From Actinomycetota bacterium (GTDB lineage: Bacteria; Actinomycetota; Acidimicrobiia; Acidimicrobiales; AC-14), in contig JAXDOC010000014.1 in the NCBI GenBank assembly GCA_034669165.1, positions 41,110 through 105,109 on the forward strand: a stretch of DNA of 64,000 nucleotides, read 5' to 3'. The position numbers were made by a program, and so were the translations under genes. The notes under the pieces are model-generated. The model saw only the letters and a program-made list of their open reading frames with translations, did no database searches and was not told the origin of the DNA. Shown here in pieces: positions 11,557 through 57,785 of the stretch. Numbering within the stretch: position 1 is the first letter of the stretch; every line of letters starts with the position of its first letter.

Positions 11557-11751
11557 CGGGGCCTCGGGACCGCCGCCCCGGCGTCGCCGCCATCGGCTCC
11601 GGCGGCCCTGCGCCCGACTGTCGGTCGCCACCGCGACCGTGTCGTTGACGACGGCGGCGGACGTCCCGGCGGCCGTCTCACCCGCAGCGCGGTCCGGTTG
11701 CGCCGGAGCCGAGGGGAGGCCGGGGTCCGCCACCGTCGGTACTCTACCGAC

Positions 11752-27852: not shown

Positions 27853-27868
27853 GCCGGGAGGAGAGCCC

Positions 27869-28714: not shown

Positions 28715-28732
28715 CGGTAGGGTCGGGGCGGC

Positions 28733-30680: not shown

Positions 30681-30688
30681 CGGCTGCC

Positions 30689-32098: not shown

Positions 32099-32117
32099 GA
32101 GGTGGGAAAATAGGAGG

Positions 32118-32804: not shown

Positions 32805-32823
32805 CGAACCTACGATCGGGGGG

Positions 32824-35647: not shown

Positions 35648-37596
35648 GCCCGGACCGCCTGGCCGTCGTCCGACGGGATACGTCTCGGGGCCGGATCGAC
35701 GGCCGCGACCGCGACCGCCGCCGGCCAGGCGACGGCGAGGACGGCGGCGGCCACGTTCAGACCCGAGTCGTTGAGCACGGAGCCGAGCACCGCCGCGGCC
35801 AGGACCGCATACGCCCCGAACCGAAGCGGGGGACGGGTGCCGGGCGACCAGCGGGTGACGACGAGGGCGGCGGCCGCGATCAGGACCAGGTTGGCCATCG
35901 GCGCCTTGATGGTGGCGACGGCCCGGGTGGCCTTGCGGACGATCTCGTCGCCCAGGCCGTCGCCCCCCACGCTCTTGGCCAGGTGGGTCTGCGAGCCGGC
36001 GTCCCGGGCCAGGTCGACGGCGACGAACAGGCCCAACGCCAGGGCCGCGGCCACACCCAGGAGGAGGACGTGGCGGAGGGTGACCCGCGCCCGCCGGGCC
36101 CCCAGGAGCACCAGCCCGTAGGCGGGGACGGCGAAGAGCACGCCGCCGACGTCGGCCCCGAACTGGGGGGCGCCCCCCGCCACCACGCCCGCGGCCATAG
36201 CCCCGGCCACCCACGGGACCGCCCGCCGGCCCCACCGGTCGATGGCCAGGGCGCCGGCCACGACCAGCCCGGCGGCGAGGAAGCCGGAGCCGATGTTGCC
36301 CACCCCGAAGAAGCGGCCGGCGACCACCGGGGAGTTGCCGAAGGGCGCGTCGATTTGGAGGGGGCTGCCGAAGAAGGCGTCCACCGCCACGACCGCCGCG
36401 GTCAGCGCGGCCAGGGCCCCGACGGCGAGCACCGCGTCGCTCCGGGGGCGGGCGCGGGCCAGGGCCACCCCGCCCAGCGCGATCACGGCCGCCACCAGTC
36501 CACCGACCGCCAGCCCCACCCACGCCCCGCCCCGCCACCACGGGACGAGCATCATGAGCAGGCTGGCCGGGGGGATGGCCAGCAGGATGCAGGCGACCAC
36601 CGTCCGGGCCCGGCGCCAGCGCACGGCCACGAGCGCCCCGAGCAGGTGGAGCACGACGAACAGCCACACCAAGGCGGTGCGCGACCGGTCCGACGTCCAC
36701 GTGCGCCGGTCCCGTTCGACGAGGTCTGGGCGCCCGACGGCGGCGGTCGGCGTGACGACCCCGCCTCCCACCGTCGACGGCGGCGCCACACCCGCCAGGT
36801 GCAGGAACGTCCGGCTCACGTCGGGGAGGGTGGCCAGGTGGTCGTCGTGGGTCGAGGGTGAGCCGAGGCCGGCGGAGCCCAGGCCACAGGCCGGCGAGGC
36901 GGCGAGGACGCCCAGGTGCCGGTTCTCGTCCGGCGTGGAGGCACTGACGACAAGGGCGCACGTGCCGTCGAGGACCCCGAGGACTTCGGGCAGGCCGGCC
37001 GGGACGGCCACCACCAGGGCGTCGGCCCCGGAGCCCAGCGCCGCCTCCAGGCCCGCCATGGTGCCCGGGAAGCTCGGGGGCAGGGTCCCGTCGGAGCTCA
37101 CCGCAACCGCCGCCGCTTCGCTGTTGTCCCCCAGGGTGCCGACCAGGGCCAGCTCCCGGCCGTCGGCCCGGAAGGCGCCGCCCACCGAGCCCAACGCCCC
37201 GCCGTAGTGGAGCCCCCGGTCGTGGTCGACCAGCTCGTCCCACGCCGCCAGCCGCAAGCCGCCCCCGTCCACGGGCTCCCCCCGGCCCACAGCCGCCTCC
37301 GCACCTTCGGCCGGCGCGCCCGACCGCGCCCCCTTCCCCAGCGTGAGGTAGACGTCGGCCGCCCCCGACCGGGACCCGGCCGTGCGCATCGACAGGTTGG
37401 CCTTGGCGTAGCCATCCAGCGCCGGCGGCGCCGCCCCCCAGACGAGGTCGCGCACCAACACCATCGCCACCGGCCGCCGGGCGTCGGTACCGGCCGCCGC
37501 CGCCGACGCGGGCGGGCCCGACCCCATCGTGAGCCCCAGGACGCAGACGGCCCCCACCAGGACGGGCGCGCCGCGTCGGCGTCCGGAGGTCATCAT
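35644..37596 (-). CDS. Large integral membrane protein with signal peptide (hypothetical)
   Basis: 650 aa from the MM start at 37596 (MMTSGRRRGAPVLVGAVCVLGL). An extracytoplasmic N-terminal domain is followed by about 9 TM helices. It is translationally coupled to the glycosyltransferase. Confidence 0.6.
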   Translation of the reverse strand: MMTSGRRRGAPVLVGAVCVLGLTMGSGPPASAAAAGTDARRPVAMVLVRDLVWGAAPPALDGYAKANLSMRTAGSRSGAADVYLTLGKGARSGAPAEGAEAAVGRGEPVDGGGLRLAAWDELVDHDRGLHYGGALGSVGGAFRADGRELALVGTLGDNSEAAAVAVSSDGTLPPSFPGTMAGLEAALGSGADALVVAVPAGLPEVLGVLDGTCALVVSASTPDENRHLGVLAASPACGLGSAGLGSPSTHDDHLATLPDVSRTFLHLAGVAPPSTVGGGVVTPTAAVGRPDLVERDRRTWTSDRSRTALVWLFVVLHLLGALVAVRWRRARTVVACILLAIPPASLLMMLVPWWRGGAWVGLAVGGLVAAVIALGGVALARARPRSDAVLAVGALAALTAAVVAVDAFFGSPLQIDAPFGNSPVVAGRFFGVGNIGSGFLAAGLVVAGALAIDRWGRRAVPWVAGAMAAGVVAGGAPQFGADVGGVLFAVPAYGLVLLGARRARVTLRHVLLLGVAAALALGLFVAVDLARDAGSQTHLAKSVGGDGLGDEIVRKATRAVATIKAPMANLVLIAAAALVVTRWSPGTRPPLRFGAYAVLAAAVLGSVLNDSGLNVAAAVLAVAWPAAVAVAAVDPAPRRIPSDDGQAVRA

Positions 37597-37674
37597 CCGG
37601 TCGCCGAGCGTAGTGAGCCGAATGGTCGCCGCCTCGGCGGACAGGACGGTCCCGGTTCTCCGTACTGTTGGGTC

Positions 37675-37766
37675 GTGGCCGCGCCCCGACTCCTGCCCAT
37701 GCTCGCCGGGGGCAGCGGGCCGCCGCCGAACCCGGACGGGTGGATGTTCGAGCCCAAGCTCGACGG
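37675..37766 (+). pseudogene. 5' fragment of a disrupted ATP-dependent DNA ligase (up to the KLDG of the KxDG motif)
   Basis: It reads V-AAPRLLPMLAGGSGPPPNPDGWMFEPKLDG and then breaks. It is parallel to the N-terminus of the intact ligase at 45621 (SPPRLLPMLAGGSGFPTNPDAFQLEPKLDGQR). Confidence 0.8.
37762..37766. repeat. GACGG junction core, left copy
   Basis: The same pentanucleotide lies at the right junction (47130-47134). This is either a target duplication or the crossover core. Confidence 0.55.
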
Positions 37767-37800
37767 TTCTCCGCACAGACGGGATGTGTCTCAGAGCGGC
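37767..37800. repeat. Left terminal inverted repeat of the element
   Basis: TTCTCCGCACAGACGGGATGTGTCTCAGAGCGGC. It shares TCCGCACAG(A/T)CG and TGTGTC(T)CAGAG blocks with the reverse complement of 47081-47129. Confidence 0.55.
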
Positions 37801-37882
37801 GGCTACTCAAACGGCTGTGAGGCGACTCAAGAGCTGCGACTCGAGTCCAGCGGCGGCGTGCGAGCGGTCTGGAGGTACAGAC

Positions 37883-38443
37883 CTACGGGTCGTGCGTTGC
37901 CAATGGCAATCGCTTCACGAACAACCGTTCCGCCAGGACGGCGATCACCTTGAAGCCCCACGTCGAGAAGACCGGCATGGTGACCGCTTCCTCACGAGTC
38001 GCCGGGCGGAGGGGCGTCGCCCCCTCGTAGAGCATGACGGTGCCGCCGCCGCGGTGGGTCACCTGGCGTAGGCCGCGGATTCCGTCAAGAGCGAGATCGC
38101 GGTGGCCCAGGATCGAGCGACCGTTCTTCTGGATCGTCAGGACGTGCGCCCAACCCTGCGCGACGACGTATCGGCCCGCGATGTCGATCGGTGTCGGCAG
38201 ATCATCACCCTCCCAGTCCATAAGGGCAGCGAGGAACGTCCGGCTGTTTCCGGGGAAGTAGTCGTCCGATTCCCTCTTGATCCCCAGGACCCGGCCGCAT
38301 GCCCACCTGCCGTCGCTCAGCGGGACACCCCAGAATTGGCCCGGCAGAAGGTAAGCGTTCGACTTGGGCTCGAACGGGTACTCCGACGCGGCCACGCCGC
38401 ACGATAAGTGATCGCGTGGCGGGGAGGGTTCACGCTTACCCAC
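37883..38443 (-). CDS. Hypothetical protein (element cargo)
   Basis: 186 aa with coding-like composition (YLLPGQFWGVPLSDGRWACGRVLGI...). I cannot place it confidently in a family. Confidence 0.5.
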   Translation of the reverse strand: MGKREPSPPRDHLSCGVAASEYPFEPKSNAYLLPGQFWGVPLSDGRWACGRVLGIKRESDDYFPGNSRTFLAALMDWEGDDLPTPIDIAGRYVVAQGWAHVLTIQKNGRSILGHRDLALDGIRGLRQVTHRGGGTVMLYEGATPLRPATREEAVTMPVFSTWGFKVIAVLAERLFVKRLPLATHDP

Positions 38444-38579
38444 GGAGCCACGGCACCGAGACTCGGGGCTCGCCCGTCGTCAAGTAGGGCACCATGGACA
38501 CGTCAACCGTCATGACGAGTTCGTCTCCCTGGCACGCCCTCACGCCCTCGGTGATGTCCTCGCGGCCGAGATCTACCGG

Positions 38580-39032
38580 GTGAAGATGCCGACCAGGGCC
38601 CAGCAGCCCTGGATTCTCGGCGGCATCGCCCTCCTCCTTGGGGTCCTCGCCATCAGCACCGGCGAATACTGGGTCTGGTCCCGGTTCGTGCTCGGTGCAA
38701 TCGCCGGCCTGGTCCTGGTGGCATTCATGGTGCTCCGTCGGTTGCGCCGGGAGCCAAATCTCGTCCTCCTGGCTCTCGTGCCCCCTGAGCTGCTCGTTCT
38801 TCGGGTGACGTTCCTGTCGACGCGCTGGAAGGTGATCGACGAGATCGGTCACTGGAGTTTCGACGAGATCGAGGCTGTCCCCGGTGGGGAGGTCCTGGCG
38901 CTGAACCTGATCCTGCCGAACCAGGATTCGCTCGACCTCACTCCTCTGGCTGTCTCCCGGGACGCCTCGCAGATCTCGGCGGCCGTCACCGATGCGGGTG
39001 TTGAGCCGAGGGGCCGACCCAGTGGCGGGTAG
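38580..39032 (+). CDS. Hypothetical two-TM membrane protein (element cargo)
   Basis: 150 aa with two N-terminal hydrophobic helices followed by a small soluble domain. Confidence 0.5.
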   Translation: MKMPTRAQQPWILGGIALLLGVLAISTGEYWVWSRFVLGAIAGLVLVAFMVLRRLRREPNLVLLALVPPELLVLRVTFLSTRWKVIDEIGHWSFDEIEAVPGGEVLALNLILPNQDSLDLTPLAVSRDASQISAAVTDAGVEPRGRPSGG

Positions 39033-39228
39033 GGGCCGCAACTTCGCCTGAGGCACCCGACGGAACCGACGCGTTCCATCTCCGTCGGGCCGGCTCGGTT
39101 TCCCGCTCGGCCTGACCTCAGGTAGGCCAGCTGCCGGCATACGCGCTCTTGCTGACGCCCACCAGCGGGGGCGGCCGCCAGCAAAGTGTGGTTCGCCTAC
39201 GAGGCCCGGATGTTGTATCAACAGGTCG

Positions 39229-39765
39229 ATGGGGCTTATGGCACGACTGGACGCCCTCGATCGCCGCTTCGGGAATGACATCGGTCGTGCTCGGTCGGGA
39301 TCGGGCCGGGCCGAACATTCGCTCGCGTACGGTGTCATTGCCTTAGGCGTGCTTGTCGGCGTGACGCTGCTCGCCCTCAGCGCTTGGAATGGCCACCGTG
39401 ACAGGCGAATCGCAGATCGCCTACGCCACGACGGAGTTGAGGTCGATGCCGTGATCGTCGACGCTCGGACGGCTTACGAGCTCAAGGGGGAGAATGAGCT
39501 GAAGGTTGCCTTCGATGCGAGTGCTGGTCAGCACGTGGAGACGTGGGTGACCGTCAGCCACCCCTACCCACTGGGGCCCACTCGGATCCGGTACTTGCGC
39601 ACCGATCCCAAAGAGGCTCGCCTCCTCGACGACCCCACGCCCCGAGAACACGACTTTCTCGCCCGCGTGATCATCCTCCTGGTTATGGGTTTGATCGGCT
39701 TCGGGATATTCCGCGCCTGCAGGGGTTTCGATCGAATGTTGGGATCGCATCCCAAGCCTCGCTGA
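39229..39765 (+). CDS. Hypothetical membrane protein with DUF3592-like architecture (element cargo)
   Basis: 178 aa arranged as TM helix, beta-rich soluble segment, then a C-terminal TM helix. Confidence 0.5.
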   Translation: MGLMARLDALDRRFGNDIGRARSGSGRAEHSLAYGVIALGVLVGVTLLALSAWNGHRDRRIADRLRHDGVEVDAVIVDARTAYELKGENELKVAFDASAGQHVETWVTVSHPYPLGPTRIRYLRTDPKEARLLDDPTPREHDFLARVIILLVMGLIGFGIFRACRGFDRMLGSHPKPR

Positions 39766-39847
39766 TCACGACTCGGCGTTTCGAGGGCTCCGGCGCTTTG
39801 CGGAGCATCCCTGGCGGCTGACCCAGCGCTGGATACGGTCGGGGTGA

Positions 39848-41242
39848 GTGGAGCTCTTCCTCTCCCGGCGGGAGCTCCTCACGGTCGATGCCTCGATCGA
39901 GGTTCTCGGCGTGCCCGAGCGGATGCCGTTCATCCTCGGCGACGACGGCTCCTACGACCTGCGCCTCAACCAGTTCCTCCGCGAGCTTCCGACCATGGGC
40001 GTGCGGGCCGAGAAGAGCTGGCTGGCCTACGCCCGGGACCTGCTCACCTGGATCCGCTTCCTCGCCGAGCGGCGCAGCCGGACGGTGTGGCTGGCCGAGC
40101 AGGCTGACGTCGCCGCCTTCCACCGGGCCCGGCGCCTCGGCCCGCCGGAGACGGCGGTGTCGTCGGGGACCTGGGACCGGGGCATAGCCACCCTCGACAA
40201 GTTCTACCGGTGGGCCGTCGCCCACGGCCACGTGGAGCGGCTCCCGTTCTCCTACCGGGCCCCTCGGGCGGCGGCGTTCCTGCCCGGCCGGCGCCATCCC
40301 GAGCCGGTGAACCTGGCCAAGGAGCGCCAGGGCCGGCGCCGCCCGCCTGGCTTCCTCTCGGTCGGCGACTACCTCGTCTTCCGCGACGTCGGCCTGCGCG
40401 GTCGCCTGCCCGACGGTTCGGCCGACCCCGCCTTCCGGGGCCGCAACGGCCACCGCAACGCGCTCTTCGCCGAGCTGCTCGTCACCACCGGCATGCGGCT
40501 CAGCGAGGCGGCAAGCTTGCTCCCGGTCGAGCTCCCGCCCCCGGGGTCGGCGAAGTCGGCGCTCCTCGAGCTGGCACCGGTGGTCTGCAAAGGCGGACGG
40601 GGGCGCACCGTGCGCGTCCCGGCGAGGGTGCTGCGCTCGATCAGCGGCTATGTCGACCTCGAACGGCAGAACGCCGTGCTGGGGCACCGCCCAGAGCCCG
40701 ACGGCGAGCCTCAGGTCGTCGGGGCCGACGCCCGGTCCTGCTGGGTGGCGGTGGAGGGCCGGCGCTTCCGGGTGCGCCTGGCCAGGATGACGCCGGCCCA
40801 CCGCCTGGCCGCGGTCGAGGTCGACGAGTCGGGCCGGCGGGCTCCGATGGCACTGTGGCTGGGCGAGGGCGGCGCGCCCGTCTCGCCCCGGGCCTGGGAG
40901 GCGGTCTTCCATCGGGCCAGCGCCCGATGCCGGGAACTGGGCCATGCGATCGACGCCAGCCCGCACACGCTGCGCCACACCTTCGCCGTCCACATGCTCT
41001 CGCTGCTCATCCGAGAGCAGATCGCCTCGGTCGAGGGAGCCGCTCCCGACCCCGCCACCGCTCCCTACCGGCGACTCCTGGGCGACCCTCTGCAGCACCT
41101 CCAGCGGCTGCTCGGACACCGCAGCGTCGCCACGACCTACATCTACCTGGACAGCCTGGCCGAGGCGCAATGGCTCGTCGACGACGCCATCGACCGCTGG
41201 TCCAGGGAGATCGGCCCCGAGGCCGGCGATGTCGTCGCCTAG
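39848..41242 (+). CDS. Tyrosine recombinase/integrase (trio gene 1, canonical catalytic motifs)
   Basis: 464 aa with TTGMRLSEAASL (Arg I), SPHTLRHTFAVHM (HxxR) and LLGHRSVATTYIYLD (His and catalytic Tyr). Confidence 0.9.
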   Translation: MELFLSRRELLTVDASIEVLGVPERMPFILGDDGSYDLRLNQFLRELPTMGVRAEKSWLAYARDLLTWIRFLAERRSRTVWLAEQADVAAFHRARRLGPPETAVSSGTWDRGIATLDKFYRWAVAHGHVERLPFSYRAPRAAAFLPGRRHPEPVNLAKERQGRRRPPGFLSVGDYLVFRDVGLRGRLPDGSADPAFRGRNGHRNALFAELLVTTGMRLSEAASLLPVELPPPGSAKSALLELAPVVCKGGRGRTVRVPARVLRSISGYVDLERQNAVLGHRPEPDGEPQVVGADARSCWVAVEGRRFRVRLARMTPAHRLAAVEVDESGRRAPMALWLGEGGAPVSPRAWEAVFHRASARCRELGHAIDASPHTLRHTFAVHMLSLLIREQIASVEGAAPDPATAPYRRLLGDPLQHLQRLLGHRSVATTYIYLDSLAEAQWLVDDAIDRWSREIGPEAGDVVA

Positions 41243-43070
41243 CCCGGCCGGCGTCAGTCGTGGTCGGAGGCGGGTCACCTTCGAGCCGGAGGCCGAGCCG
41301 GAGAAATCGAAGGTCACCTCGGTGGGCTTCGTGCGCCACACCCTGGTCTTCGACGAGGGCAAGACGCTCTCCCTCGACTACACCGGCCTGCCGTGTCCCC
41401 GGCTGGTCCGCCACCTGACCGCCGCCCTGGCCAGCCGGGCCGGCGTCGGCGGCGGGCACCTCACCATCGGGACGGGGCGGATGTACGGCAGCGCCATCCG
41501 GGCCTTCGTGCCCTTCATCGCCGGCCGCTACCCGGCCCGGGTGCGATCGTTCGACGCCAGCGATCTCACCGCCGCCGACATCGACGCCTTCGAGGAGGCG
41601 CAGCGAAGTCGTCTGCCGAGCGACAGTGGCACCCCTTACCTCCGCGTGGGCTCGGTGGTGCGGCTGCTGCGCGTCCTGGCCGAGGGCGGTCAGGTCGCCT
41701 TGCGAACCGACCTGCTGGCCCGCCTCGACTACGTGGCCAACGGCCTCAAGGGCCACTCCACCCCCCGGGACGCCTACAGCCCGGCGGAGACGTCGAGGCT
41801 CCGGGACGCCTGCCGGGCCGACGTCCTGGCCATCATCGAACGGCTCACCGTCACCGGCGAGCAGCGTCTGGCAACGGGTTGCGAGCCTGTCGGCCGTGGC
41901 TGGAGAGTGCCCGAGAACGTGATGTGGCACATCGATCGCCACGGCCCCGTGCGCGAAAGCGAGCTCCAGAAGCACCAGGGCCGTCTGAAAGTGGGCTTCC
42001 GCATCGCCGACCTGAACAAGCTGCTCTATCCGACGAGGGCGGACCTGGTGCCGTTCCTGCTGCTACTGGCGCTGGAGAGCGGCCTTGAGCTCGAGGCGTG
42101 CAAGGAGCTGCGGGCCGACTGCCTCGGCACGGCCACCGGCGGGCGGGTCGAGATCCACTACCGCAAGCGCCGGGCCGGGTCCTATCAGTGGCGGTCGTTG
42201 TGGGTCCGCGACGCCGGGATGTTCTCGCCCGGGCGGCTGGTCCGCATCGTGCTGCGCCTGACCAGCCGGGCCCGGGCCCATTCGGGTTCGGAGTGGCTGT
42301 GGCTCTCGGTGCACAATCCGCGCGTCACCCGCCCGACCTTCACCGTCGGATCGAGTCTCTTCACCAGCTTCGTCGCCCGTCACGGCCTGTGCGCCGACAG
42401 CGGGGACCCTCTGTCGCTGCAGCCCGTCCGGTTGCGCAAGACCTACAAGGCCGGGCGCTATCTCATCACCCAGGGTCAGCTTCCGGACTTCGCCGGCGGA
42501 AGCCACACCGAGACCGTCGCCGGCGACCACTACGGGGCCATCGAGGCCCTGCGGCCGTTCCACGAGGCGGCGATCGAGCGGGCCCTGCTCGAAGCCGTCG
42601 CCGTCGGCCGGGCCTGCAAGGTGGTCACGGCCGAGCAGGAGACGGAGCTGGCCGCCGACCCGGCGCTGGGCAGTGAGGTGCTCGGTGTCGCACCGGCGGA
42701 GGTCCAAGCGTTCCTGGGGGGGGAGCAGGACGTCTGGCTGTCGAGCTGCCGGGACTTCTTCGATTCGCCCTTCGGGACTCCGGGCTCGGCCTGCCCCACC
42801 CCGTTCTGGGCCTGCCTGGGGTGCTCCAACGCCGTCATCACGACCCGGAAGCTTCCTGCCCTGCTGTCGTTCCTGGCCCACATGGTCGAAGCGAGGACCA
42901 GGATGGCGGCCGAGCCCTGGGCCGCCACCTACGGCGAGGCACACCGCCTGCTCACCGAACACGTCCTGCCCCGATTCCCGCCGGCGGTGATCGCCGCCGC
43001 CCAGGCTGCGGCCAGTGTGGAGCCCAGCCTCGTCTATCTCCCACCGCAACTGCGAGTGGGCCGACCGTGA
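41229..43070 (+). CDS. Large tyrosine-recombinase-family protein (trio gene 2, degenerate motifs)
   Basis: 613 aa. The ATG at 41229 overlaps gene 1 by 14 nt. Box-II-like segments are LQPVRLRKTYKAG and GSHTETVAGDHYGAI. The C-terminal Cys cluster is CPTPFWACLGCSNAVIT. Confidence 0.7.
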   Translation: MSSPSPAGVSRGRRRVTFEPEAEPEKSKVTSVGFVRHTLVFDEGKTLSLDYTGLPCPRLVRHLTAALASRAGVGGGHLTIGTGRMYGSAIRAFVPFIAGRYPARVRSFDASDLTAADIDAFEEAQRSRLPSDSGTPYLRVGSVVRLLRVLAEGGQVALRTDLLARLDYVANGLKGHSTPRDAYSPAETSRLRDACRADVLAIIERLTVTGEQRLATGCEPVGRGWRVPENVMWHIDRHGPVRESELQKHQGRLKVGFRIADLNKLLYPTRADLVPFLLLLALESGLELEACKELRADCLGTATGGRVEIHYRKRRAGSYQWRSLWVRDAGMFSPGRLVRIVLRLTSRARAHSGSEWLWLSVHNPRVTRPTFTVGSSLFTSFVARHGLCADSGDPLSLQPVRLRKTYKAGRYLITQGQLPDFAGGSHTETVAGDHYGAIEALRPFHEAAIERALLEAVAVGRACKVVTAEQETELAADPALGSEVLGVAPAEVQAFLGGEQDVWLSSCRDFFDSPFGTPGSACPTPFWACLGCSNAVITTRKLPALLSFLAHMVEARTRMAAEPWAATYGEAHRLLTEHVLPRFPPAVIAAAQAAASVEPSLVYLPPQLRVGRP

Positions 43071-45211
43071 CCGTCGTCCGCCCGACACCCGTCACGCCGG
43101 CGACATCGCCCCACTACCTTCCCGACGCACCCGTGCTGCGCGGCCGCCTGCTGGGCGATTCCGCCCTTCCCGCCTTCCGCCGCGGACGTGGACTGCCCGA
43201 CGATCGGCCACCGGTCTTCGGCGACGACGTGTGGCCTCTGGGCTGGGCCCACACCCGCCGCAACGTCGAGCCATCGACGCTGCTGGTCGACTTTCGTGGC
43301 ATCGAGGCGCCCGTGCGGCGGCTGACGGCGAAGGAGTATCTCTACGCCCGGCTCAACGAGCGGGTGATGGGGATCAAGTGCACCCTCCCTGTCCAGATAG
43401 TCCGCCAGGAGCTCAATTTCCTCCTCGCCTTCTTCGCCTTTCTCGACAACCAGCAGGGGGCTATGGCGCTGGGCGAAGTGGACCAGGAGGTGCTCGACGC
43501 CTACCGCCTGTGGTGTCAGGCCGGCACGAGCGGCAGGGGCGCCCCGATCGGGGCCGCCGCGGTGGCGAGCTACATCTCCGTCACCATCCGCCTGGCCCTT
43601 TGCGGCGAGTTCCTGAGCCAGGACCGCCTGCAGATCATGCCGTGGCGTGGGCGGTCGGCCTACGTCGTCGCCGGAGTGGTGGAGCGGACCGAGAACGCCA
43701 CCCCCCGCATCCCTGAGGCGGTGCTGGGGGCGCTGCTGCGCTGGGCGCTGTTCTATGTGGAGGTCGCCGCCACGGACATCCTGGCGGCGAGCAACGAGCT
43801 CGCCCAGCTGGAGGCCCGCCTGAGGACTCCCCCGGGCCCGTCAGCCCAGCTATCGGCCTGGATCGAGACCCGACGGGCAGCCGGACGGGGAATCCCCGCT
43901 CTGGCGGTGAAGGGGGATGGCGCGTCGGAGCGACGGCTGTCAGCCAACACCAACCTCGTCCGCCGGATGGCGGGTCTGCCGGGTCGCTCTCTCGACTCTG
44001 ACTGCTGCCAACGGATGCTGAGGGACGCCGTCAACGAGTTGGGACTCGAGCTGGGGGGCCTCGACACCGCGGTCTCGCCGGACCCGTCGACCGGTCGGCC
44101 ATGGCGATCGCCCTTCACTCCCAAAGACCTGCGCGTTGAGCGACGAATGGTGCAGGCCGCCTGCTACATCGTGTGCGCCTACCTGTCGGGCATGCGGGAC
44201 TCCGAGCTGCAGGAGCTGCGCCGGGGCTGCCACGTCGTCCAGCGCAGCGCCGACGGCGTGATCGGCCACCACAAGCTGCGTGGCCAGGTGTTCAAAGGTC
44301 GCGGCGCTCAGGGCGAGGAGGCGTCCTGGGTCGTGATCGACCCGGTCGTGCGGGCGGTGGAGGTCCTCGAGGCCATGCACTCCCACGACCATCTGCTCAC
44401 CTCCCCGAGCCACGACGTCTACCCCAGCCCGGCCGTCCGGTCGGGCGATCTCACCGGAGGCGCCAGACTCGGCCCCTCGGTGGTGAGGCTCATCAACGAG
44501 TTCCGGGATCATCTCAACGCCACCCAGGGCGAGGGGGGTGAGGCCGCCGTCCCCGACCACGAGGGCCGGCCGTGGCACTTCACCACCGGCCAGTTCCGCC
44601 GCACGCTGGCATGGCACATCGCCCACCAGCCCTTCGGAATCGTCGCCGGCATGCTCCAGTATCAGCACGTGTCGGTGGCGACCTTCGAGGGCTACGTTGG
44701 CCAGAGCCCCTCCGGGTTCCAGCGGGAGGTGGAGGCCGAACGCAGGCTCGCGGCCCTCGACGACCTGGTCGACGACTACCGGGACCATCTGGCGGGCCTG
44801 CCGTCGACGGGTGGGGGTGCGGCCAAGCGCAACGCCGTGTTCGCCCACGTTCACGACAGTCTCGACGACTCAGGGCCGGTGGTCGACGACGCCCGCTTGC
44901 GGGCCATGCTCAAGCACGCGGCCCGGACGCTCTACCCCGGGGTCCTCAACGACTGCTTCTTCGAGCGCGACGGCGCGCTGTGCCTCCGATCCTTCGGCGA
45001 GGGCGCCAACGAGCCGCTGCTCCCGCTCTGCCAGCCCAACCGCTGCGGCAACTCCGTCATCACCGACGGCCACGTCACGAGCTGGAAGCACGCCATCGGC
45101 GAGGTCAGAGTCCACCTCCGCCAGAAGGACCTGAGCCAGAACCAGCGCCACGCCCTGAAAGCCAAGCTCTCCGAGATGGAGGCGGCCATCGCTCCGCTCG
45201 ACCAGCCGTGA
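43067..45211 (+). CDS. Large tyrosine-recombinase-family protein (trio gene 3)
   Basis: 714 aa. The GTG at 43067 overlaps the gene 2 stop (GTGA). Motifs are YLSGMRDSELQEL (Arg I-like), TTGQFRRTLAWHIA, and LQYQHVSVATFEGYVG (His/Tyr). The C-terminal Cys cluster is CFFERDGALC...CQPNRCGNSVIT. Confidence 0.8.
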   Translation: MTVVRPTPVTPATSPHYLPDAPVLRGRLLGDSALPAFRRGRGLPDDRPPVFGDDVWPLGWAHTRRNVEPSTLLVDFRGIEAPVRRLTAKEYLYARLNERVMGIKCTLPVQIVRQELNFLLAFFAFLDNQQGAMALGEVDQEVLDAYRLWCQAGTSGRGAPIGAAAVASYISVTIRLALCGEFLSQDRLQIMPWRGRSAYVVAGVVERTENATPRIPEAVLGALLRWALFYVEVAATDILAASNELAQLEARLRTPPGPSAQLSAWIETRRAAGRGIPALAVKGDGASERRLSANTNLVRRMAGLPGRSLDSDCCQRMLRDAVNELGLELGGLDTAVSPDPSTGRPWRSPFTPKDLRVERRMVQAACYIVCAYLSGMRDSELQELRRGCHVVQRSADGVIGHHKLRGQVFKGRGAQGEEASWVVIDPVVRAVEVLEAMHSHDHLLTSPSHDVYPSPAVRSGDLTGGARLGPSVVRLINEFRDHLNATQGEGGEAAVPDHEGRPWHFTTGQFRRTLAWHIAHQPFGIVAGMLQYQHVSVATFEGYVGQSPSGFQREVEAERRLAALDDLVDDYRDHLAGLPSTGGGAAKRNAVFAHVHDSLDDSGPVVDDARLRAMLKHAARTLYPGVLNDCFFERDGALCLRSFGEGANEPLLPLCQPNRCGNSVITDGHVTSWKHAIGEVRVHLRQKDLSQNQRHALKAKLSEMEAAIAPLDQP

Positions 45212-45624
45212 GCAGCGTCAGCCCGGCCGCCGAGCAGGCGCTGCAGGAAGCCCTGGGCCGTCTCGGCGAGGGCCGACCGCTGCGATCCGACGGCGCCCTC
45301 ACCGTCTCGGGCCTGGCCGTCGAGGCGGGCGTCAGCCGGTCGACGGCCAACCGGGCCAGCACCGTCCTGGCCGCCCTGCGAGCGTTGCGGTCGGCCGCTG
45401 AGTCCCGGCCCACGCCCGCCAGCCCTGCCAGTGACGAGCGGACGGCTCGCATCGAGATGGAGCTCCTGCGCCGGGCCCACGGGCAGCGGGTGGCGGCGCT
45501 GGAGGCCTCGATCGACACCCTCGCTCAGCACGTTCAGGTGCTCACCCTCGACAATGAGCGGCTGAGGAGGACCGTTGCAACGTATGCAGGGAACGTGACG
45601 CCGATGAAGGACGCCGAGCCGTGA
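45208..45624 (+). CDS. Small HTH plus coiled-coil protein (TnpC-like position)
   Basis: 138 aa. The GTG overlaps the gene 3 stop (GTGA). It has an HTH-like segment LTVSGLAVEAGVSRSTANRA and a C-terminal heptad-like region (IEMELLRRAHGQRVAALEASIDTLAQHVQVLTLDNERLRR). Confidence 0.65.
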   Translation: MSSVSPAAEQALQEALGRLGEGRPLRSDGALTVSGLAVEAGVSRSTANRASTVLAALRALRSAAESRPTPASPASDERTARIEMELLRRAHGQRVAALEASIDTLAQHVQVLTLDNERLRRTVATYAGNVTPMKDAEP

Positions 45625-46643
45625 CCGAAGCCGAAGCCTCGGGCTCGCCCCCGCGCCTGCTCCCAATGCTCGCCGGCGGCAGCGGCTTCCCGACCAACCC
45701 CGACGCCTTTCAACTAGAGCCCAAGCTGGATGGCCAGAGGGTGATCGGGATCAGCGAACCCGCCGGCGTTACCTTGCTGAACCGTCGGGGCGGCGAGATC
45801 ACCGCCACCTATCCCGAGCTGGCCGGGCTGGCCGAGGCCCTGGCGCCGCACTCGGCCGTGCTCGACGGCGAGATGGTCACGTTCAACGAGAAGGGCCAGA
45901 CCAGCTTCCAGCGCCTCCAACGGAGGATGCACGTCAAGCAGCCGACGGCCCGTCTGCTCGCCGATACGCCGGTGTCGTTCGTCGTGTTCGACGTGCTGTG
46001 GCTCGACGGGGAGCTGCTCGTCGACCGCTCGCAGTCCGAGCGGCGGACGATCCTCGACGGCCTCGGGATCAAGGGACGGGCGTGGCAGACCGCCCCCGTC
46101 CTCGCCGCCACTCCCGAGGAGCTGATGGACGCCTGCCGTCAGCTCGGCCTCGAGGGATTCATGGCGAAACGACGCGACGCGCCCTACCTTGTCGGCCGCC
46201 GGTCGTCGGCCTGGTCGAAGATCAAGTGCGGCCGCCGACGGGAGTTCGTGGTCGGCGGGTGGTCCACCGGGAGCGGCTCCCGGGAGACCAGCATCGGTTC
46301 CCTGGCCCTTGGCGTCTATGACGTGACTCCCGAGGAGGCGGAGCGCGAAGGGCGGCCGCCGCGCCTCTTCTATACCGGCCAGGCCGGCTCGGGCCTCAAC
46401 GAGGAGATGATCCAGCGGCTCACCCGTCTCTTCGCCGAGATCGAGGAGCCGACGCCCGCGTTCGTCAACCCGCCGAGGGCGCCGCTCCATTGGGTCCGGC
46501 CCATGCTGGTCGTCGAGATCGCCTACACCGAGGTCACCGACGGCGGAACCCTTCGCCAGCCCTCGATCAAGGGCCTCCGGACCGATGTCATCGCCGACGA
46601 GGTGACGTTCGACGACGAGCTGGCGACGTGTTTCTCGAGGTGA
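45621..46643 (+). CDS. ATP-dependent DNA ligase, ligase-domain only (LigD-LigDom/LigC-like), element-borne and intact
   Basis: 340 aa. The GTG overlaps the upstream stop (GTGA). The EPKLDGQR adenylation motif, FDVLWLDGE, EGFMAKR, WSKIKC and an OB-fold C-terminus are present. Confidence 0.9.
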   Translation: MTEAEASGSPPRLLPMLAGGSGFPTNPDAFQLEPKLDGQRVIGISEPAGVTLLNRRGGEITATYPELAGLAEALAPHSAVLDGEMVTFNEKGQTSFQRLQRRMHVKQPTARLLADTPVSFVVFDVLWLDGELLVDRSQSERRTILDGLGIKGRAWQTAPVLAATPEELMDACRQLGLEGFMAKRRDAPYLVGRRSSAWSKIKCGRRREFVVGGWSTGSGSRETSIGSLALGVYDVTPEEAEREGRPPRLFYTGQAGSGLNEEMIQRLTRLFAEIEEPTPAFVNPPRAPLHWVRPMLVVEIAYTEVTDGGTLRQPSIKGLRTDVIADEVTFDDELATCFSR

Positions 46644-46713
46644 CTATCCCCTTGGCCCGCGTCGTCGTTCATCCTGGAGGCGTGACCAAACTCACCCTGG
46701 GCCCCCCTTTGAG

Positions 46714-47070
46714 ATGAGCACGCCGCATGGCGACTTCCCTCGAGTGATGAAGGCGCTGGCGAACGCGCCCATCGGGACGCTCCGGGAGCTCCTCTTCAGG
46801 ATCTGCGTTATGGCCCTGGTATGCACCGTTTGGCTTGCGCGCACCTGGGCTGGAGCCATTTTCGGAACGCTGATCTTCGTGATGGCGCTGGTGGGGGGCC
46901 GCGCCGCACAACTACGAGCGGAGCAAGACGGCCGTGTTGAGCAGGAGCGGCTGCAGCAGGAAAAGTTCCGGTCCAAGGTCCACGGATGGGCCGCGGGGAC
47001 CCGCATCATGTTCTTCTTGTTCGTCCTCGGATTCCTGGCGTGGATGGTGTTCGACCTCTTCGCGGCGTGA
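46714..47070 (+). CDS. Small membrane protein (element right arm)
   Basis: 118 aa with three hydrophobic helices, in a less GC-rich region. Confidence 0.5.
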   Translation: MSTPHGDFPRVMKALANAPIGTLRELLFRICVMALVCTVWLARTWAGAIFGTLIFVMALVGGRAAQLRAEQDGRVEQERLQQEKFRSKVHGWAAGTRIMFFLFVLGFLAWMVFDLFAA

Positions 47071-47080
47071 TCATGGGACC

Positions 47081-47129
47081 GGGCTCTCTGACACACCTGT
47101 CCCTGGTGACACACGACTGTGCGGATAAC
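47081..47129. repeat. Right terminal inverted repeat of the element
   Basis: The reverse complement is GTTATCCGCACAGTCGTGTGTCACCAGGGACAGGTGTGTCAGAGAGCCC. It matches the left-end blocks TCCGCACAG and TGTGTC(T)CAGAG. Confidence 0.55.
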
Positions 47130-48050
47130 GACGGCCAGCGCATCATCGCCGTCGTGGAGGACGGCCACGTCGTCCTCGTCAACCGGCGGGGCCTGGAGGC
47201 CACCGCCACCTTCCCCGAGCTGGAAGGCATGGCCGGCGCCCTCGCCCCCCACGCGGTCGTCCTCGACGGGGAGGTGGTGGCGTTCAACGAGAAGGGCCAG
47301 ACCAGCTTCCAGCGCCTGCAGCGGCGGATGCACGTCGTCCAGCCGACGTCCCGGCTCCTGGCCGACACGCCCGTGTCCTTCGTCGCCTTCGACGTCCTCT
47401 GGCTCGACGGCGAGCTCCTCGTCGACCTCCCCCAATCCGAGCGCCGCCGGATCCTCGACGGGCTCGGGCTGAAAGGCCGGGCCTGGCAGACGGCGCCCGT
47501 CCTCGACGCCACGCCGGCCGAGCTGGTCGACGCGTGCCGCGAGGCGGGCCTGGAGGGGTTCATGGCCAAGCGGGTCGACGCCCCCTACCTCCCCGGCCGG
47601 CGCTCCACCGCGTGGTCGAAGATCAAGTGCGGCCGGCGGCGGGAGTTCGTGGTCGGCGGGTGGTCGACCGGCACCGGTTCGAGGGAGTCGAGCATCGGGT
47701 CGCTCGCCCTCGGCGCCTTCGACGTGACCCCCGACGAGGCCGAGGTCGCCGGCCGCCAGCAGCGGCTTTTCTACGTCGGTCAGGCCGGGTCCGGGCTCAA
47801 CGAGGACATGATCCGCCAGCTCACCCGCCTCTTCGCCCAGATCGAGGAGCCGCTCAGCCCGTTCGTCAACCCGCCCCGGGCCAAGCTCCACTGGGTTCGC
47901 CCGCTGCTCGTGGTCGAGGTCGCCTACACCGAGGTCACCGAGGCGGGCACCCTCCGCCAGCCGTCGATCAAGGGCCTGCGCACCGACGTCATCGCCACCG
48001 ACGTGACCTGGGACGACGAGTTGGCCGAGGCCTTCGCCGGGCGCACCTAG
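47130..48050 (+). pseudogene. 3' portion (from DGQR of the KxDG motif to the stop) of the disrupted chromosomal ATP-dependent DNA ligase
   Basis: It reads DGQRIIAVVEDGHVVLVNRRG... to the stop. It is collinear and gap-free with residues after KLDG of the element ligase. It has no N-terminal LLPMLA...FEPK segment of its own. Confidence 0.85.
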
Positions 48051-48129
48051 GCCGAAAAGGCGTTTCCCGGTGGGCTTCCGGGGAAGGAAAGCACTCAGAG
48101 CAAGGCGGGGATCACGAAGGGAGAAGGGT

Positions 48130-48360
48130 TTGTCGAATGGCGCCCATGAACTGAGCCTGGAAGACCTCGAAGCGGAGGAAGCCACCGCGCTCCCCGAGCG
48201 GGAGGCCATGTCGAAGGTCCACCTCGGCGCGGGGTTGGGCATCGACAACTTCGCCATGCCGATCAACGAGGCCACGGCCATGAACATCAACTCGACGGAC
48301 GCCGTCGCCATCGCCGACGCCGACCAGATCGTCATCATCACCCAAGCCGACGTGGACTAG
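48130..48360 (+). CDS. Small acidic peptide, paralog 1 (leader-like N-terminus plus Ala/Asp/Asn/Ile-rich C-terminus)
   Basis: A TTG start at 48130 is preceded by GAAGGGAGAAGGG. The sequence is LSNGAHELSLEDLEAEEATALPEREAMS-KVHLGAGLGIDNFAMPINEATAMNINSTDAVAIADADQIVIITQADVD. Confidence 0.6.
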   Translation: MSNGAHELSLEDLEAEEATALPEREAMSKVHLGAGLGIDNFAMPINEATAMNINSTDAVAIADADQIVIITQADVD

Positions 48361-48372
48361 GAGGACGAACCC

Positions 48373-48693
48373 ATGAGCCAGACCCAGAAGCCCGAGATGT
48401 CCCTCGAGGAGATGGACGAGGAGTCCGCCGCCGCTCTCCCCGACCGGGAGGCGATGTCGCTGCTCGACCTTGCCCTCAACCTCGACCTGGCCCTCGACCT
48501 GGCCGCACCGGTCGACGCGGCGGTCGCCGCCAACGCCAACGTGGCCGCCCCGATCGACGCGGCCGTGGCCGCCAACATCGCCTCCGTCGGGTCGGAGGCC
48601 ACCGCCGTCGCCGACCAGGACTCCGTGATCATCCAGGAGCTCGACGGCACGGCCATCGCCAACGCCACCCAGGGCGCCACCATCGAGCAGTAG
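48373..48693 (+). CDS. Small acidic repeat peptide, paralog 2
   Basis: AGGAGG lies upstream. The sequence is MSQTQKPEMSLEEMDEESAAALPDREAMS-LLDLALNLDLALDLAAPVDAAVAANANVAAPIDAAVAANIASVGSEATAVADQDSVIIQELDGTAIANATQGATIEQ. Confidence 0.7.
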   Translation: MSQTQKPEMSLEEMDEESAAALPDREAMSLLDLALNLDLALDLAAPVDAAVAANANVAAPIDAAVAANIASVGSEATAVADQDSVIIQELDGTAIANATQGATIEQ

Positions 48694-48725
48694 CTCGCCC
48701 GACCACTTTTTGGAGGAGAACCCCG

Positions 48726-49106
48726 ATGAATGAAGCAACTGGTCTTACCGACGCCGAGCTCGAGTCCCAGGACGTCACCGCCGTTCCCGACCGGGAGGCG
48801 ATGTCGGTGCTGGACGCCCTCGACCCGGCGGCACTGCTGGGGACGTCGCTGCTCAACGTCGACGTCGACCTCAACCTCGACGCCGACGTGGCTGCGCCCA
48901 TCGACGCCGCCATCGCCGCCAACGCCAACGTGGCCGCACCGATCGACGCCGCCGTGAGCGCCAACGTCCTGTCCGTCGACTCCGACGCGGCCGCCCTGGC
49001 CGACCAGGACTCGCTCATCGCCCAAGACCTCGACGGCACCGCCATCGCCACCGCCATCCAGGACGCCGGCATCGACCAGGGCGGCGCCAGCGCCGCCGCC
49101 GGCTGA
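48726..49106 (+). CDS. Small acidic repeat peptide, paralog 3
   Basis: GGAGGAG lies upstream. The sequence is MNEATGLTDAELESQDVTAVPDREAMS-VLDALDPAALLGTSLLNVDVDLNLDADVAAPIDAAIAANANVAAPIDAAVSANVLSVDSDAAALADQDSLIAQDLDGTAIATAIQDAGIDQGGASAAAG. Confidence 0.7.
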   Translation: MNEATGLTDAELESQDVTAVPDREAMSVLDALDPAALLGTSLLNVDVDLNLDADVAAPIDAAIAANANVAAPIDAAVSANVLSVDSDAAALADQDSLIAQDLDGTAIATAIQDAGIDQGGASAAAG

Positions 49107-49147
49107 GCTGACGGTCGCTCCGTACCTCCGCCTCCCGGACCCTGACG

Positions 49148-50896: not shown

Positions 50897-50919
50897 CCAC
50901 CAGCGTGATCACCAAGGAG

Positions 50920-51504
50920 ATGCCGATGAACCGCTTGGTCCGCAACCTTGTCAGCATCGTCGTCGCCGCCGGCGTCGTGCTCGCCCCCACCGCCGCCGGT
51001 GCCAGGGACGAGAACGTCGTGTACGCCGTGAACCGCACCGACGGCAGCGCTCTGGTGCGGGCGAGCGTCGACTACCGGAAGGTGAACAACGGCAAGGTCG
51101 AGGAGGAGAACCGGGCCTACGCGGTGGCCCAGTGCGTCGGCTGCCGCACCCTCGCCGCCGCCTTCCAACTGGTCCTCGTCACCAAGCCGCCGACGATCCT
51201 CGCCCCCCAGAACGAGGCCGTCGCCGTCAACAACGAGTGCGACACGTGCGTGACCTGGGCCTCGGCCAAGCAGATCGTCGTCGAGACGGGCGGGAAGGCG
51301 GAGCTGACGAAGTCCGGCCGGGACCGGTTGGAAGGGGTCGAGAACGGCCTGGAGTCCCTGCAAGAGGGGATGATGGACAAGAGCCTCGAGCAGCTGTCCG
51401 CCGAGATCGACTTCTGGTTCGCCGAGTTCCTCGACGTCGCCCAGACCGAGATCGAGCGCACCGACGGCGGCCACAACGACGCCCGGGTGATCGCCAGCCG
51501 GTAA
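50920..51504 (+). CDS. Secreted protein with two CxxC motifs (hypothetical)
   Basis: AAGGAG lies before the ATG at 50920. Signal peptide MPMNRLVRNLVSIVVAAGVVLAPTAAGA. CVGC and CDTC motifs are present. Confidence 0.65.
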   Translation: MPMNRLVRNLVSIVVAAGVVLAPTAAGARDENVVYAVNRTDGSALVRASVDYRKVNNGKVEEENRAYAVAQCVGCRTLAAAFQLVLVTKPPTILAPQNEAVAVNNECDTCVTWASAKQIVVETGGKAELTKSGRDRLEGVENGLESLQEGMMDKSLEQLSAEIDFWFAEFLDVAQTEIERTDGGHNDARVIASR

Positions 51505-51508
51505 ACGC

Positions 51509-52084: not shown

Positions 52085-52182
52085 CTCCGCCGAATACTAC
52101 GATCCGACTCGAGGACCCGCCGGGCGAAAGGGGGTGCGGCACGAGCGAGCAGCCCGGTCCGGCGGCGGACGGACCCCAACGT

Positions 52183-57757: not shown

Positions 57758-57785
57758 CCGTACGATCGATGGGCAGGAGGTAGCC

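Follow-up and report, generated by a model that had tools for sequence, protein, structure and literature searches.

An element of 9,362 bp interrupts the gene for a DNA ligase of the non-homologous end-joining (NHEJ) type in the stretch of actinomycetotal DNA analyzed here (64,000 nucleotides of contig JAXDOC010000014.1, assembly GCA_034669165.1; hereafter "the window"). It is as good as certain that this is a mobile element, precisely inserted at a target in ligase genes that is used recurrently. The insert lies directly 3' of the codons for K-L-D-G, i.e., within the active-site motif (motif I, KxDG) that carries the catalytic lysine of the host enzyme, and it encodes a complete ligase of its own. 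We favor, with a probability of roughly 70%, the reading that the element is a site-specific transposon that would destroy the ligase gene of its host and replace it with a copy protected against the element itself.

Insertion site, ends and recurrent target

The window has a GC content of 72%, with 69.5% in the insert against 73.5% in the flanks, and its nearest relatives are Acidimicrobiia metagenome-assembled genomes (MAGs), on which grounds a Streptomyces origin, initially suspected from the GC content, was rejected. The left junction reads TTCGAGCCCAAGCTCGACGG followed by TTCTCCGCACAG, and the right junction CTGTGCGGATAA followed by CGACGGCCAGCGCATC. At closer range, GAGCCCAAGCT and the hexamer CGACGG (37761-37766) precede TTCTCCGCACAG on the left; on the right, CTGTGCGGATAA (47117-47128) is followed by CGACGG (47129-47134) and CCAGCGC. 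An initial annotation, made from the sequence of the window alone, had placed an element in the KxDG codons of an NHEJ-type ligase gene and proposed that the two gene halves re-join in frame. Both statements hold: joining 37675-37766 to 47135-48050 gives 1,008 nt, i.e., 335 codons and a stop, without any internal stop. The product is also collinear, as had been claimed, with the intact ligase of the element (45621-46643; 79% identity over 329 amino acids). In the profile search suggested at the time, the re-joined translation scored 234.8 bits against TIGR02779 (NHEJ_ligase_lig), above the cut-off of 227.75, and with its KxDG motif I and a Ku gene nearby the target gene classes as an NHEJ ligase.

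The decisive comparison is with uninterrupted loci. A search for an intact orthologue, likewise suggested by the initial annotation, returned protein P0001 (JGI 3300044703, contig Ga0467034_0001095), which is 100% identical to the re-joined protein. Its contig (L001 in our labels for compared loci) aligns to window positions 27705-37766 and 47129-58050 at 99.0% identity. These two alignments have just 6 bp in common, CGACGG, making L001 an exact empty site in which the hexamer is present as a single copy (L001 10063-10068; junction sequence GAGCCCAAGCTCGACGGCCAGCGC). A second empty site is provided by the syntenic contig L002 (~90% nucleotide identity), where the gene is uninterrupted as well, and the breakpoints match to the base against both. 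The interrupted locus is thus made up as follows.

37675-37766, plus strand: host ligase 5' stub, with the codons up to K-L-D-G (first two bases of the Gly codon); reads MLAGGSGPPPNPDGWMFEPKLD(G), identical to P0001; starts at GTG 37675 or at ATG 37699, the latter being the start called in the empty-site contig
37761-37766, plus strand: left flanking hexamer CGACGG, the target's own 6 bp, kept at attL
37767-47128, plus strand: inserted element, 9,362 bp, delimited by the empty-site alignment
47129-47134, plus strand: right flanking hexamer CGACGG, constant or foreign at this position in related insertions
47135-48050, plus strand: host ligase 3' body, beginning at base 3 of the Gly codon and running on through QRIIAV... 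up to the stop
57798-58583, plus strand: Ku gene (PF02735 on the L001 orthologue, and translation), which places the target ligase in an NHEJ context

The 5' stub does not belong to the gene on its left, which is divergent, on the minus strand, with a signal-peptide-like start at an ATG near 37597. As initially described, the insertion cuts the catalytic Lys motif off from the gene body: the frame of the 3' body is still open, but read-through from the element gives CADNDGQRII, without the catalytic Lys. The ratio of non-synonymous to synonymous substitution rates (dN/dS) of the 3' body is 0.18 (window vs L113). Ku lies ~10 kb downstream, where the initial annotation had put it, and it adjoins the ligase in L003 and L120.

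The insertion is one of several. At least six further related elements, from other assemblies, sit at the K-x-D-G codons of ligase genes (hexamer NGACGG), and the junctions were seen in independent assemblies from NCBI, ENA, JGI and Logan. The sequences on either side of the elements are as follows.

Window: left GAGCCCAAGCT-CGACGG; right CGACGG-CCAGCGC
L113: left as in the window; right CGACGG; same orthologue as in the window
L119: left as in the window; right GGATGG; same orthologue as in the window
L003: left GAACCCAAGCT-TGACGG (KLDG); right GGACGG-GGTCCGG
L004: left GAGCCGAAGTG-GGACGG (KWDG); right CGACGG-GGTGAGG
L007: left GAGCCGAAATG-GGACGG (KWDG); right CGACGG-CGTGCGC
L112: left GAAACAAAGGT-GGACGG (K-V-D-G); right outside the contig
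L114: left outside the contig; right GGACGG-CGTGCGA
L117: left not identified; right GTACGG; decayed element with a mutated right end

The right junctions of L114 and L117 read DG/VRAV. Because the targets of L004 and L007 are ligases of a different type (K-W-D-G, 51-55% identical), the common denominator of these insertions is the DNA for motif I, not one particular gene. A scan of JGI metagenomes for the left-end pattern gave 24 matches, 22 of them chance occurrences in unrelated DNA; the two relevant ones are L092 and L112.

The ends of the element are delimited by short repeats.

37767-37796, plus strand: left end, with the 12-bp terminal inverted repeat TTCTCCGCACAG, then subterminal TGTGTC(T)CAGAG
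47090-47128, plus strand: right end, with two subterminal GACACA motifs, then the 12-bp repeat CTGTGCGGATAA (47117-47128)

The right repeat is complementary to the left one at 11 of 12 positions. Such a match is unremarkable by itself: a generic inverted-repeat scan of the GC-rich region produced 420 pairs, and the true ends were outside the top 25. We nevertheless take the inverted repeats of the initial annotation as real, because they lie exactly at the breakpoints and recur at independent insertions, with the identical left 12-mer at the left junctions of L003, L004, L007, L112, L113, L118 and L119, and the same right 12-mer at the right junctions of L004, L007, L114, L113, L118 and L119.

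The flanking hexamers follow a pattern. Left hexamers agree with the local target codons (CGACGG, TGACGG or GGACGG); right hexamers are foreign in L003, L004, L007 and L118, and the two differ from each other in L003, L004, L007, L118 and L119. Since it is constant or foreign at its position in related insertions, the right hexamer was probably brought in with the element, a carry-over (target 6 bp at attL, carried 6 bp at attR) that has been published for SE elements and Tn554 (PMC10214605). The initial annotation had recorded the pentamer GACGG at both junctions. There is indeed a repeat, but it is the hexamer CGACGG, and the element spans 9,362 bp at 37767-47128. A target-site duplication, as the pentamer suggested, was rejected because left and right hexamers differ in most related insertions. 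From these comparisons, the repeat appears to be the 6-bp crossover (coupling) hexamer of a tyrosine-recombinase reaction, without duplication, and the equal hexamers of the window look like a coincidence, donor and target hexamer being alike.

One copy (L118 4528-13451; ENA ERZ25039485 contig_12342, the same locus as L008/L088), 97% identical to window 39803-46705, lies outside any ligase gene, at a look-alike of the target that reads GAACGCAAGCA-GGACGG on the left and AGACGG-GCTGCGCGCCG on the right. This site adjoins a PIN-domain gene and an insertion sequence, and the left cargo of the copy is unlike that of the window. Its location indicates that recognition takes place at the DNA level and that the element has moved recently. 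The window copy may still be active too, to judge from its four intact recombination genes, its two intact ends and the coexistence of occupied and empty alleles at 99% identity.

Two further observations concern the flanks. At window 37656-37667, in host DNA 111 bp upstream of the insertion, TTCTCCGTACTG matches the left terminal repeat at 10 of 12 positions. This near-copy also occurs in the empty sites L001 and L002, ~5 such near-matches are expected by chance per 64 kb, and as a candidate for a meaningful site it was judged probably coincidental. Downstream of the ligase, two adjacent small open reading frames (ORFs; window 48361-48693 and 48726-49106, 106-126 aa) are paralogues of each other (~78% nucleotide identity), and the pair (48361-49106) is kept in all syntenic contigs.

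Genes of the element and the ligase it carries

Third-position GC analysis and start-codon inspection gave five plus-strand genes, four of which overlap their predecessor (14 nt or GTGA). The content of the element is as follows.

37883-38443 (186 aa) and 38436-39338 (300 aa), minus strand: left-hand cargo, two ORFs in a variable stretch of 65% GC
39848-41242, plus strand: ORF1, classical tyrosine recombinase (IntA-like), 464 aa, from Pfam matches
41229-43070, plus strand: ORF2, recombinase-fold protein, 613 aa, without the first catalytic Arg and with a C-terminal four-Cys module
43067-45211, plus strand: ORF3, large tyrosine recombinase (IntB-like), 714 aa, with the catalytic residues and a C-terminal four-Cys module
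45208-45624, plus strand: ORF4, helix-turn-helix (HTH) and coiled-coil protein, 138 aa, positional counterpart of Srap, GinD and TnpC
45621-46643, plus strand: element ligase, ATP-dependent, NHEJ-type, 340 aa, with DNA_ligase_A_M and DNA_ligase_A_C
45728-45733, plus strand: hexamer GGATGG in the element's own ligase, the equivalent of NGACGG in targets; Asp codon 45729-45731 GAT
46714-47070, plus strand: possible small ORF, 118 aa, in a variable stretch between ligase and right end; coding status uncertain

ORF1 has the full set of residues of a tyrosine recombinase: it matches Phage_int_SAM_1 (PF02899, 5.5e-13) and Phage_integrase (PF00589, 1.8e-11), and its R217, K248, H373, R376, H424 and Y433 are conserved in 56 homologues. 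Searches of ORF2 and ORF3 against Pfam, NCBIfam and PDB sequences gave no match, and for these two proteins only profile and structure methods worked. For ORF3, R377 (YLSGMRDSE), K410, R511 (FRRTLAW), H534 and Y543 are invariant in 16 diverse homologues, as are C630, C639, C655 and C660. The top seven PDB matches of its AlphaFold2 model (predicted local distance difference test (pLDDT) 76) are Cre/Tre structures, with Foldseek probability 1.0 and E 3e-4 to 5e-3 at low TM-scores (0.3). With Arg-I, Lys, Arg-II, His and Tyr in place and a predicted Cre-like fold, ORF3 is an active-looking recombinase. The ORF2 model (pLDDT 78) likewise has Cre, XerA and Tn1549 Int as best matches (probability 1.0, E 4e-4), and R403, H426 and Y435 are kept, but the Arg-I position reads G-L-E-L-E and is not conserved as Arg, leaving the catalytic set incomplete. 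Because Arg-I is absent although the modeled fold is recombinase-like, we class ORF2 as a putative accessory protein of the Tfp/GinC type, not as a canonical enzyme. Both ORF2 (C507, C522, C529 and C532; window 42747-42824) and ORF3 (window 44954-45046) end in a conserved four-Cys module that is foreign to classical tyrosine recombinases and possibly binds zinc; in ORF3 it is modeled with low confidence. ORF4 has the conserved motif DG-LTVANLAREAGVSRATANRA and weak matches to HTH families, DUF6262 and VPA1267_fam.

This four-gene layout is that of SEs (strand-biased circularizing integrative elements), which carry intA-tfp-intB-srap (Idola et al. 2023, PMC10214605). Modules laid out alike also occur on a Klebsiella pneumoniae plasmid (pVA172-90; L115 3649-9011; 397/599/645/149 aa) and on a Vibrio pectenicida plasmid (L116 1999-7562; 441/580/681/152 aa), where the annotation goes no further than integrase or hypothetical. 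Of the two third genes, that of the Klebsiella module (32% identity, covering 82% of its length) is closer to ORF3 than that of the Vibrio module. In profile comparison with the Vibrio module, ORF3 matches the third gene with an hhalign probability of 98% (E 3e-14, 425 columns), and ORF2 and ORF4 match their counterparts marginally (E 0.0036, probability 9%, and E 5e-4, probability 33%, respectively).

The remaining content is variable. The left-hand cargo region is different or absent in L003, L004, L007, L113 and L118; its two ORFs had no significant Pfam, NCBIfam or PADLOC match, and neither promoters nor terminators turned up in a scan of the left 2.4 kb. The 118-aa ORF near the right end has a GC content at third codon positions (GC3) of only 0.75 and no family match in PADLOC, Pfam or NCBIfam, and the stretch is not conserved in L008/L118. 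Scans with Pfam, NCBIfam and PADLOC detected no genes of prophages or integrative and conjugative elements (capsid, terminase, relaxase, type IV secretion) in the 9.4 kb.

The ligase, by contrast with this freely exchanged cargo, is a conserved and translationally coupled part of the element, its start codon overlapping the ORF4 stop (GTGA). ORF3 relatives of 63-68% identity, vs ≤47% for the rest of the family, delimit a clade found exclusively on Acidimicrobiia-type contigs; a ligase follows ORF4 in each of the nine clade members that were examined and in no case among ~75 family members at greater distance. Both Pfam domains of the cargo ligase are full length and motifs I, III, IV and V are present; with a TIGR02779 score of 215.9 bits, just below the cut-off of 227.75, its sequence features would still class it as an NHEJ ligase. 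The dN/dS values of the element ligases (0.14-0.22) point to purifying selection. A neighbor-joining tree of 133 ligases was too bushy to address the monophyly of element ligases, most database neighbors being on short contigs; in its place we used the pairwise identities of ORF3 and ligase, whose correlation (r = 0.83) suggests that the two have diverged together. The cargo ligase groups with ligases from Acidimicrobiia chromosomes, that of L120 among them. L120 is its closest chromosomal relative in hand (85% nucleotide identity, in a native URO-D ... ligase-Ku locus), an indication that the gene was captured long ago and from such a chromosome.

A single codon sets the element ligases apart from their targets. 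The motif-I Asp is GAT in eight of nine element-borne ligases, including those of L118 and L119, and GAC in all 10 chromosomal ligases with DNA in hand, the uninterrupted genes of L001, L002 and L120 among them; L120 has no GAT among its 13 Asp codons. In a codon alignment of seven element ligases, whose genes have a GC3 of 0.86-0.90, this Asp is the single column of ~340 in which all share an A/T-ending codon. The change from GAC to GAT is silent and falls at base 5 of the crossover hexamer. From this comparison, GAT likely protects the cargo ligase against insertion of the element into itself.

Two elements are in decay. L113 (8458-11515), with flanks that share 89% identity with the window, shows the junctions of the window and an intact 340-aa ligase; missing from it are the equivalents of window 37808-39797 and 40714-45130, i.e., most of the recombinase operon. 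L117 (~9257-12699) is without ORF1-ORF2 and has a truncated ORF3, again with an intact 340-aa ligase, and its host ligase remnant is degraded to 132 aa. The decay evidence consists of L113, with its large deletions, and L117; frameshifted ORFs in L008, L088, L118 and L119 were left out as possible nanopore assembly errors. L113 and L117 are immobilized remnants, and retention of the ligase in such remnants is what functional replacement predicts.

Proposed mechanism and competing explanations

Under the mechanism we propose, the four-gene tyrosine-recombinase module of SE-like layout would move the element. The ends would pair on a circular intermediate as a 12-6-12 core site, CTGTGCGGATAA-NNNNNN-TTCTCCGCACAG, and the recombinases, whichever of these proteins cleave, would exchange strands across the 6-bp hexamer with a chromosomal site GARCCnAAGnn-NGACGG, i.e., the stretch of ATP-dependent NHEJ ligase genes that encodes motif I (E-P-K-x-D-G). 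With integration complete, the target hexamer would stand at the left junction and the hexamer from the previous site at the right one. The host ligase would be inactivated, as the insertion separates the lysine to be adenylated from the rest of the enzyme. The loss would be compensated by the complete ligase that the element carries and that is presumably co-transcribed with the recombinase operon and serves in NHEJ, and the silent GAC-to-GAT change in the hexamer of this ligase would block insertion into itself. Once the recombinases decay, the element ligase would be kept and in effect replace the host gene. A more specific version of this scenario, which we put forward tentatively and at somewhat below even odds, is that of an SE-like lineage that lives by "destroy and replace": motif I would be its landing pad, its own ligase would differ by one silent protective change and would become the only copy of the host, and L113 and L117 would represent the end state.

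Several points weigh against this mechanism. The whole case is built on comparative sequence data, and the cargo copy may be dispensable if the host has another ligase. Only ORF3 is strongly similar to SE proteins, the similarity of ORF2 and ORF4 being marginal, and the Vibrio module used in that comparison was taken to be a bona fide SE from gene sizes and host, not from annotation. The cargo ligase of L117 has GAC, though this element is dead (without ORF1-2). The right hexamer of L119 (15906-15923) is GGATGG, the version found inside element-borne ligases, which under the carry-over rule would mean that a GAT-containing donor site is usable and could mean that the element once resided in the ligase of another element; the hexamer could also reflect a later C-to-T change or a nanopore assembly error. 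Finally, the element ligases share ancestry, so that the eight GAT codons are not eight independent events.

These reservations have to be set against four other explanations. In one of them, which we consider unlikely but would place ahead of the other three, the cargo ligase is a part of the transposition machinery, sealing a nick in an open-circular double-stranded intermediate or at the donor site, and the insertion into a ligase gene is a separate accident. SE intermediates are reported to be nicked double-stranded circles for which host repair steps have been invoked (PMC10214605), and the ligase, coupled in translation to ORF4, has diverged along with ORF3. Yet the ~75 distant members with the same four genes and termini (e.g., elements of ~6.2-6.6 kb) do without a ligase, which is carried only in the clade that destroys one, and its retention in recombinase-less remnants would be senseless for a transposition cofactor. 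The ligase could also be an ordinary passenger, captured once beside an insertion site, with GAT as a founder effect, as the cargo of GInts and SEs is varied and begins directly behind the fourth gene (PMC5385486) and the cargo ligase clusters with chromosomal Acidimicrobiia ligases (L120), the element copies sharing ancestry. We rate this as slightly more unlikely still: left and downstream cargo is freely swapped, whereas the ligase is invariant across lineages at a synonymous divergence (dS) of ~0.7 and under purifying selection; GAT is a single A/T-ending codon kept by all seven aligned copies in genes with a GC3 of 0.86-0.90; and so specific a match of cargo to target is not to be expected by chance.

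A reversible switch, in which conditional excision (e.g., in stationary phase or in a sporulation-like process) restores NHEJ through "regulated gene integrity" and the internal ligase is incidental, would account for a gene that precise removal makes whole, for occupied and empty alleles at 99% identity and for an interrupted 3' body without relaxed constraint (dN/dS 0.18). We nonetheless regard it as very improbable, since an element that already supplies an intact ligase under selection leaves nothing to switch, the immobilized remnants L113 and L117 persist, the L118 copy is at a non-ligase site, and SE-type elements are reported to leave no empty sites on circularizing. That there is no insertion at all, and the locus is an assembly chimera or a local duplication or rearrangement of two ligase paralogues, might be suspected from a window that probably stems from metagenomic assembly and holds two 79%-identical ligases 0.5 kb apart. 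The same junctions in independent NCBI, ENA, JGI and Logan assemblies, breakpoints that are base-exact against two empty sites, conserved terminal repeats and a complete recombinase operon refute this explanation in practice.

The preferred reading, a transposon that destroys a ligase gene and brings its replacement, would make the window a testable example of a mobile element taking over a core repair function. If "destroy and replace" is true, it would amount to selfish gene replacement of a DNA-repair enzyme. On the practical side, annotations of Acidimicrobiia MAGs may wrongly record ligase genes as fragments or duplicates, and high-GC Gram-positives may gain a tool in a compact, site-specific system of integration whose 30-bp core and target are defined.

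A wider family and its relation to known systems

The element is no orphan but a member of a very large, mostly unannotated family with the SE gene order. ORF3 homologues were found at >537 loci in a scan of one genome per species and on 300 plasmids by tblastn, and the four genes stand in the same order in ~80 fetched loci. Hosts include Alphaproteobacteria, Streptomyces, Saccharopolyspora, Frankia, Ktedonobacterales, Bryobacteraceae and Phycisphaerae; most members are annotated as "hypothetical" or "integrase", and minimal elements measure ~6.2-6.6 kb. The family is now recognizable by its termini (left, TTATCnnnACAG; right, CTGTnnnGATAA plus 6 bp) and by its targets, each subgroup having its own fixed one. 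With it, the range of the multi-recombinase transposons (SE, GInt, Tn554), which have been little studied, grows to include Actinomycetota and many further phyla.

Other targets were noted in the course of this survey. An element in L017 (754-7183) interrupts an ArdC anti-restriction gene between EEL[VA] and ELGAAF, at GAAGAACTC-GTCGCC-GAG, a junction shared by many alphaproteobacterial copies, and elements at the ArdC site are also present in L022/L023, L047, L050, L060-L068, L076-L079 and L081-L085. This site is inside the zincin-like metallopeptidase domain, and the elements, down to ~6.4 kb in size, are without an ardC copy. In L040, L041, L048 and L053, the right junction CTGTCCAGATAA-CATGCC-GAGGGCAT lies inside a DUF6915 gene, so that the fixed targets of the family are several and distinct. 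For another type of flank (VAELVKTLE...GRIELRAVTGPDYG), Pfam gave no match. In the ligase clade, a tyrosine-recombinase element thus recognizes the coding DNA of an enzyme active-site motif, and the sister clade does likewise with the ArdC metallopeptidase motif; active-site coding DNA offers a neat route to a conserved site in any host.

Among described systems, SEs are the closest in organization. The genes share order and sizes (intA, a tfp of ~600 aa without the full catalytic set, an intB of ~700 aa and a srap of ~140 aa) and are overlapping and translationally coupled; the window proteins of 464, 613, 714 and 138 aa fit this order, including a non-catalytic second protein of >550 aa. As in SEs (PMC10214605), attB is split between attL and attR, and short imperfect terminal inverted repeats, here 12-bp arms complementary at 11 of 12 positions, enclose a 6-bp spacer. 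Comparative evidence also agrees with the target's 6 bp at attL and carried 6 bp at attR, and both types use few specific target sites and have no conjugation genes. The differences are substantial, however. SEs were found only in Gammaproteobacteria, searches for Tfp and Srap having returned nothing in Alpha- or Betaproteobacteria and no homologues outside Gammaproteobacteria (PMC10214605), whereas the window family spans Actinomycetota, Alphaproteobacteria, Chloroflexota and others. ORF2 keeps Arg-II, His and Tyr, its similarity and that of ORF4 to the Vibrio counterparts is marginal, ~2 kb of cargo lies to the left of intA, and neither ligase targeting nor carriage of a target copy has been reported for any SE. 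The element is therefore apparently an undescribed, distant relative of SEs.

The other multi-recombinase systems are further removed. GInts, the ginABCD genomic islands (Bardaji et al. 2017, PMC5385486), likewise have three integrase-like genes and a small helix-loop-helix/HTH gene in one operon, all needed for mobility, with one of the three recombinases lacking the first catalytic Arg and with cargo starting at the stop codon of the fourth gene. They also share high target specificity, often for the 5' end of a gene, and a 6-nt staggered exchange with non-identical flanking repeats. In GInts, which we compared by description only, the defective recombinase is, however, the third (ginC) and not the second; their ends are 10-17-nt imperfect direct repeats with an AT-rich 3' end instead of 12-bp inverted repeats with a right end that is not AT-rich; and their reported hosts are Proteobacteria, Bacteroidetes, Firmicutes and Verrucomicrobia, their median size being 35 kb, so that the element does not class with them. 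Tn554 (tnpA-tnpB-tnpC; Staphylococcus, Enterococcus), likened here by description, resembles the element in its two tyrosine recombinases, one of them large, and small third protein, in strong site specificity (att554 in radC) without true target duplication, and in a 6-bp core carried from the previous site to the new right junction. It differs in having three genes and no counterpart of ORF2, which is always present in the window family, in its Firmicutes hosts and in carrying no radC copy; we do not count the element as a member of the Tn554 family. Nor is it a RIT element, as these encode three catalytic recombinases of 315-410 aa between 34-bp terminal inverted repeats without a fourth gene (PMC10214605), in contrast to proteins of 464/613/714 aa, one of them non-catalytic, a small fourth gene and 12-bp repeats.

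The literature was searched in full text, with most subscription journals outside its reach, so that absence there is no proof. The search retrieved papers on SE, GInt, RIT and Tn554 but no element that targets a ligase, no recoded copy of a target and nothing on the window family in Actinobacteria or Alphaproteobacteria; the initial remark that no described family targets ligase KxDG codons is thus not contradicted. More distant parallels exist in the way harm to the host is limited. Phages and islands that integrate into tRNA genes or gene 3' ends also use a conserved landing pad and avoid harm by restoring host function, and homing endonuclease genes also yield a product immune to re-cutting. 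Such target-rebuilding elements, however, restore the target by a short duplicate of the gene end or by splicing. In the window, the target stays broken, and what the element brings is an entire paralogue, transcribed separately and altered silently at the hexamer; such a recoded replacement gene, compensating for the one destroyed, is apparently undescribed in the literature searched.

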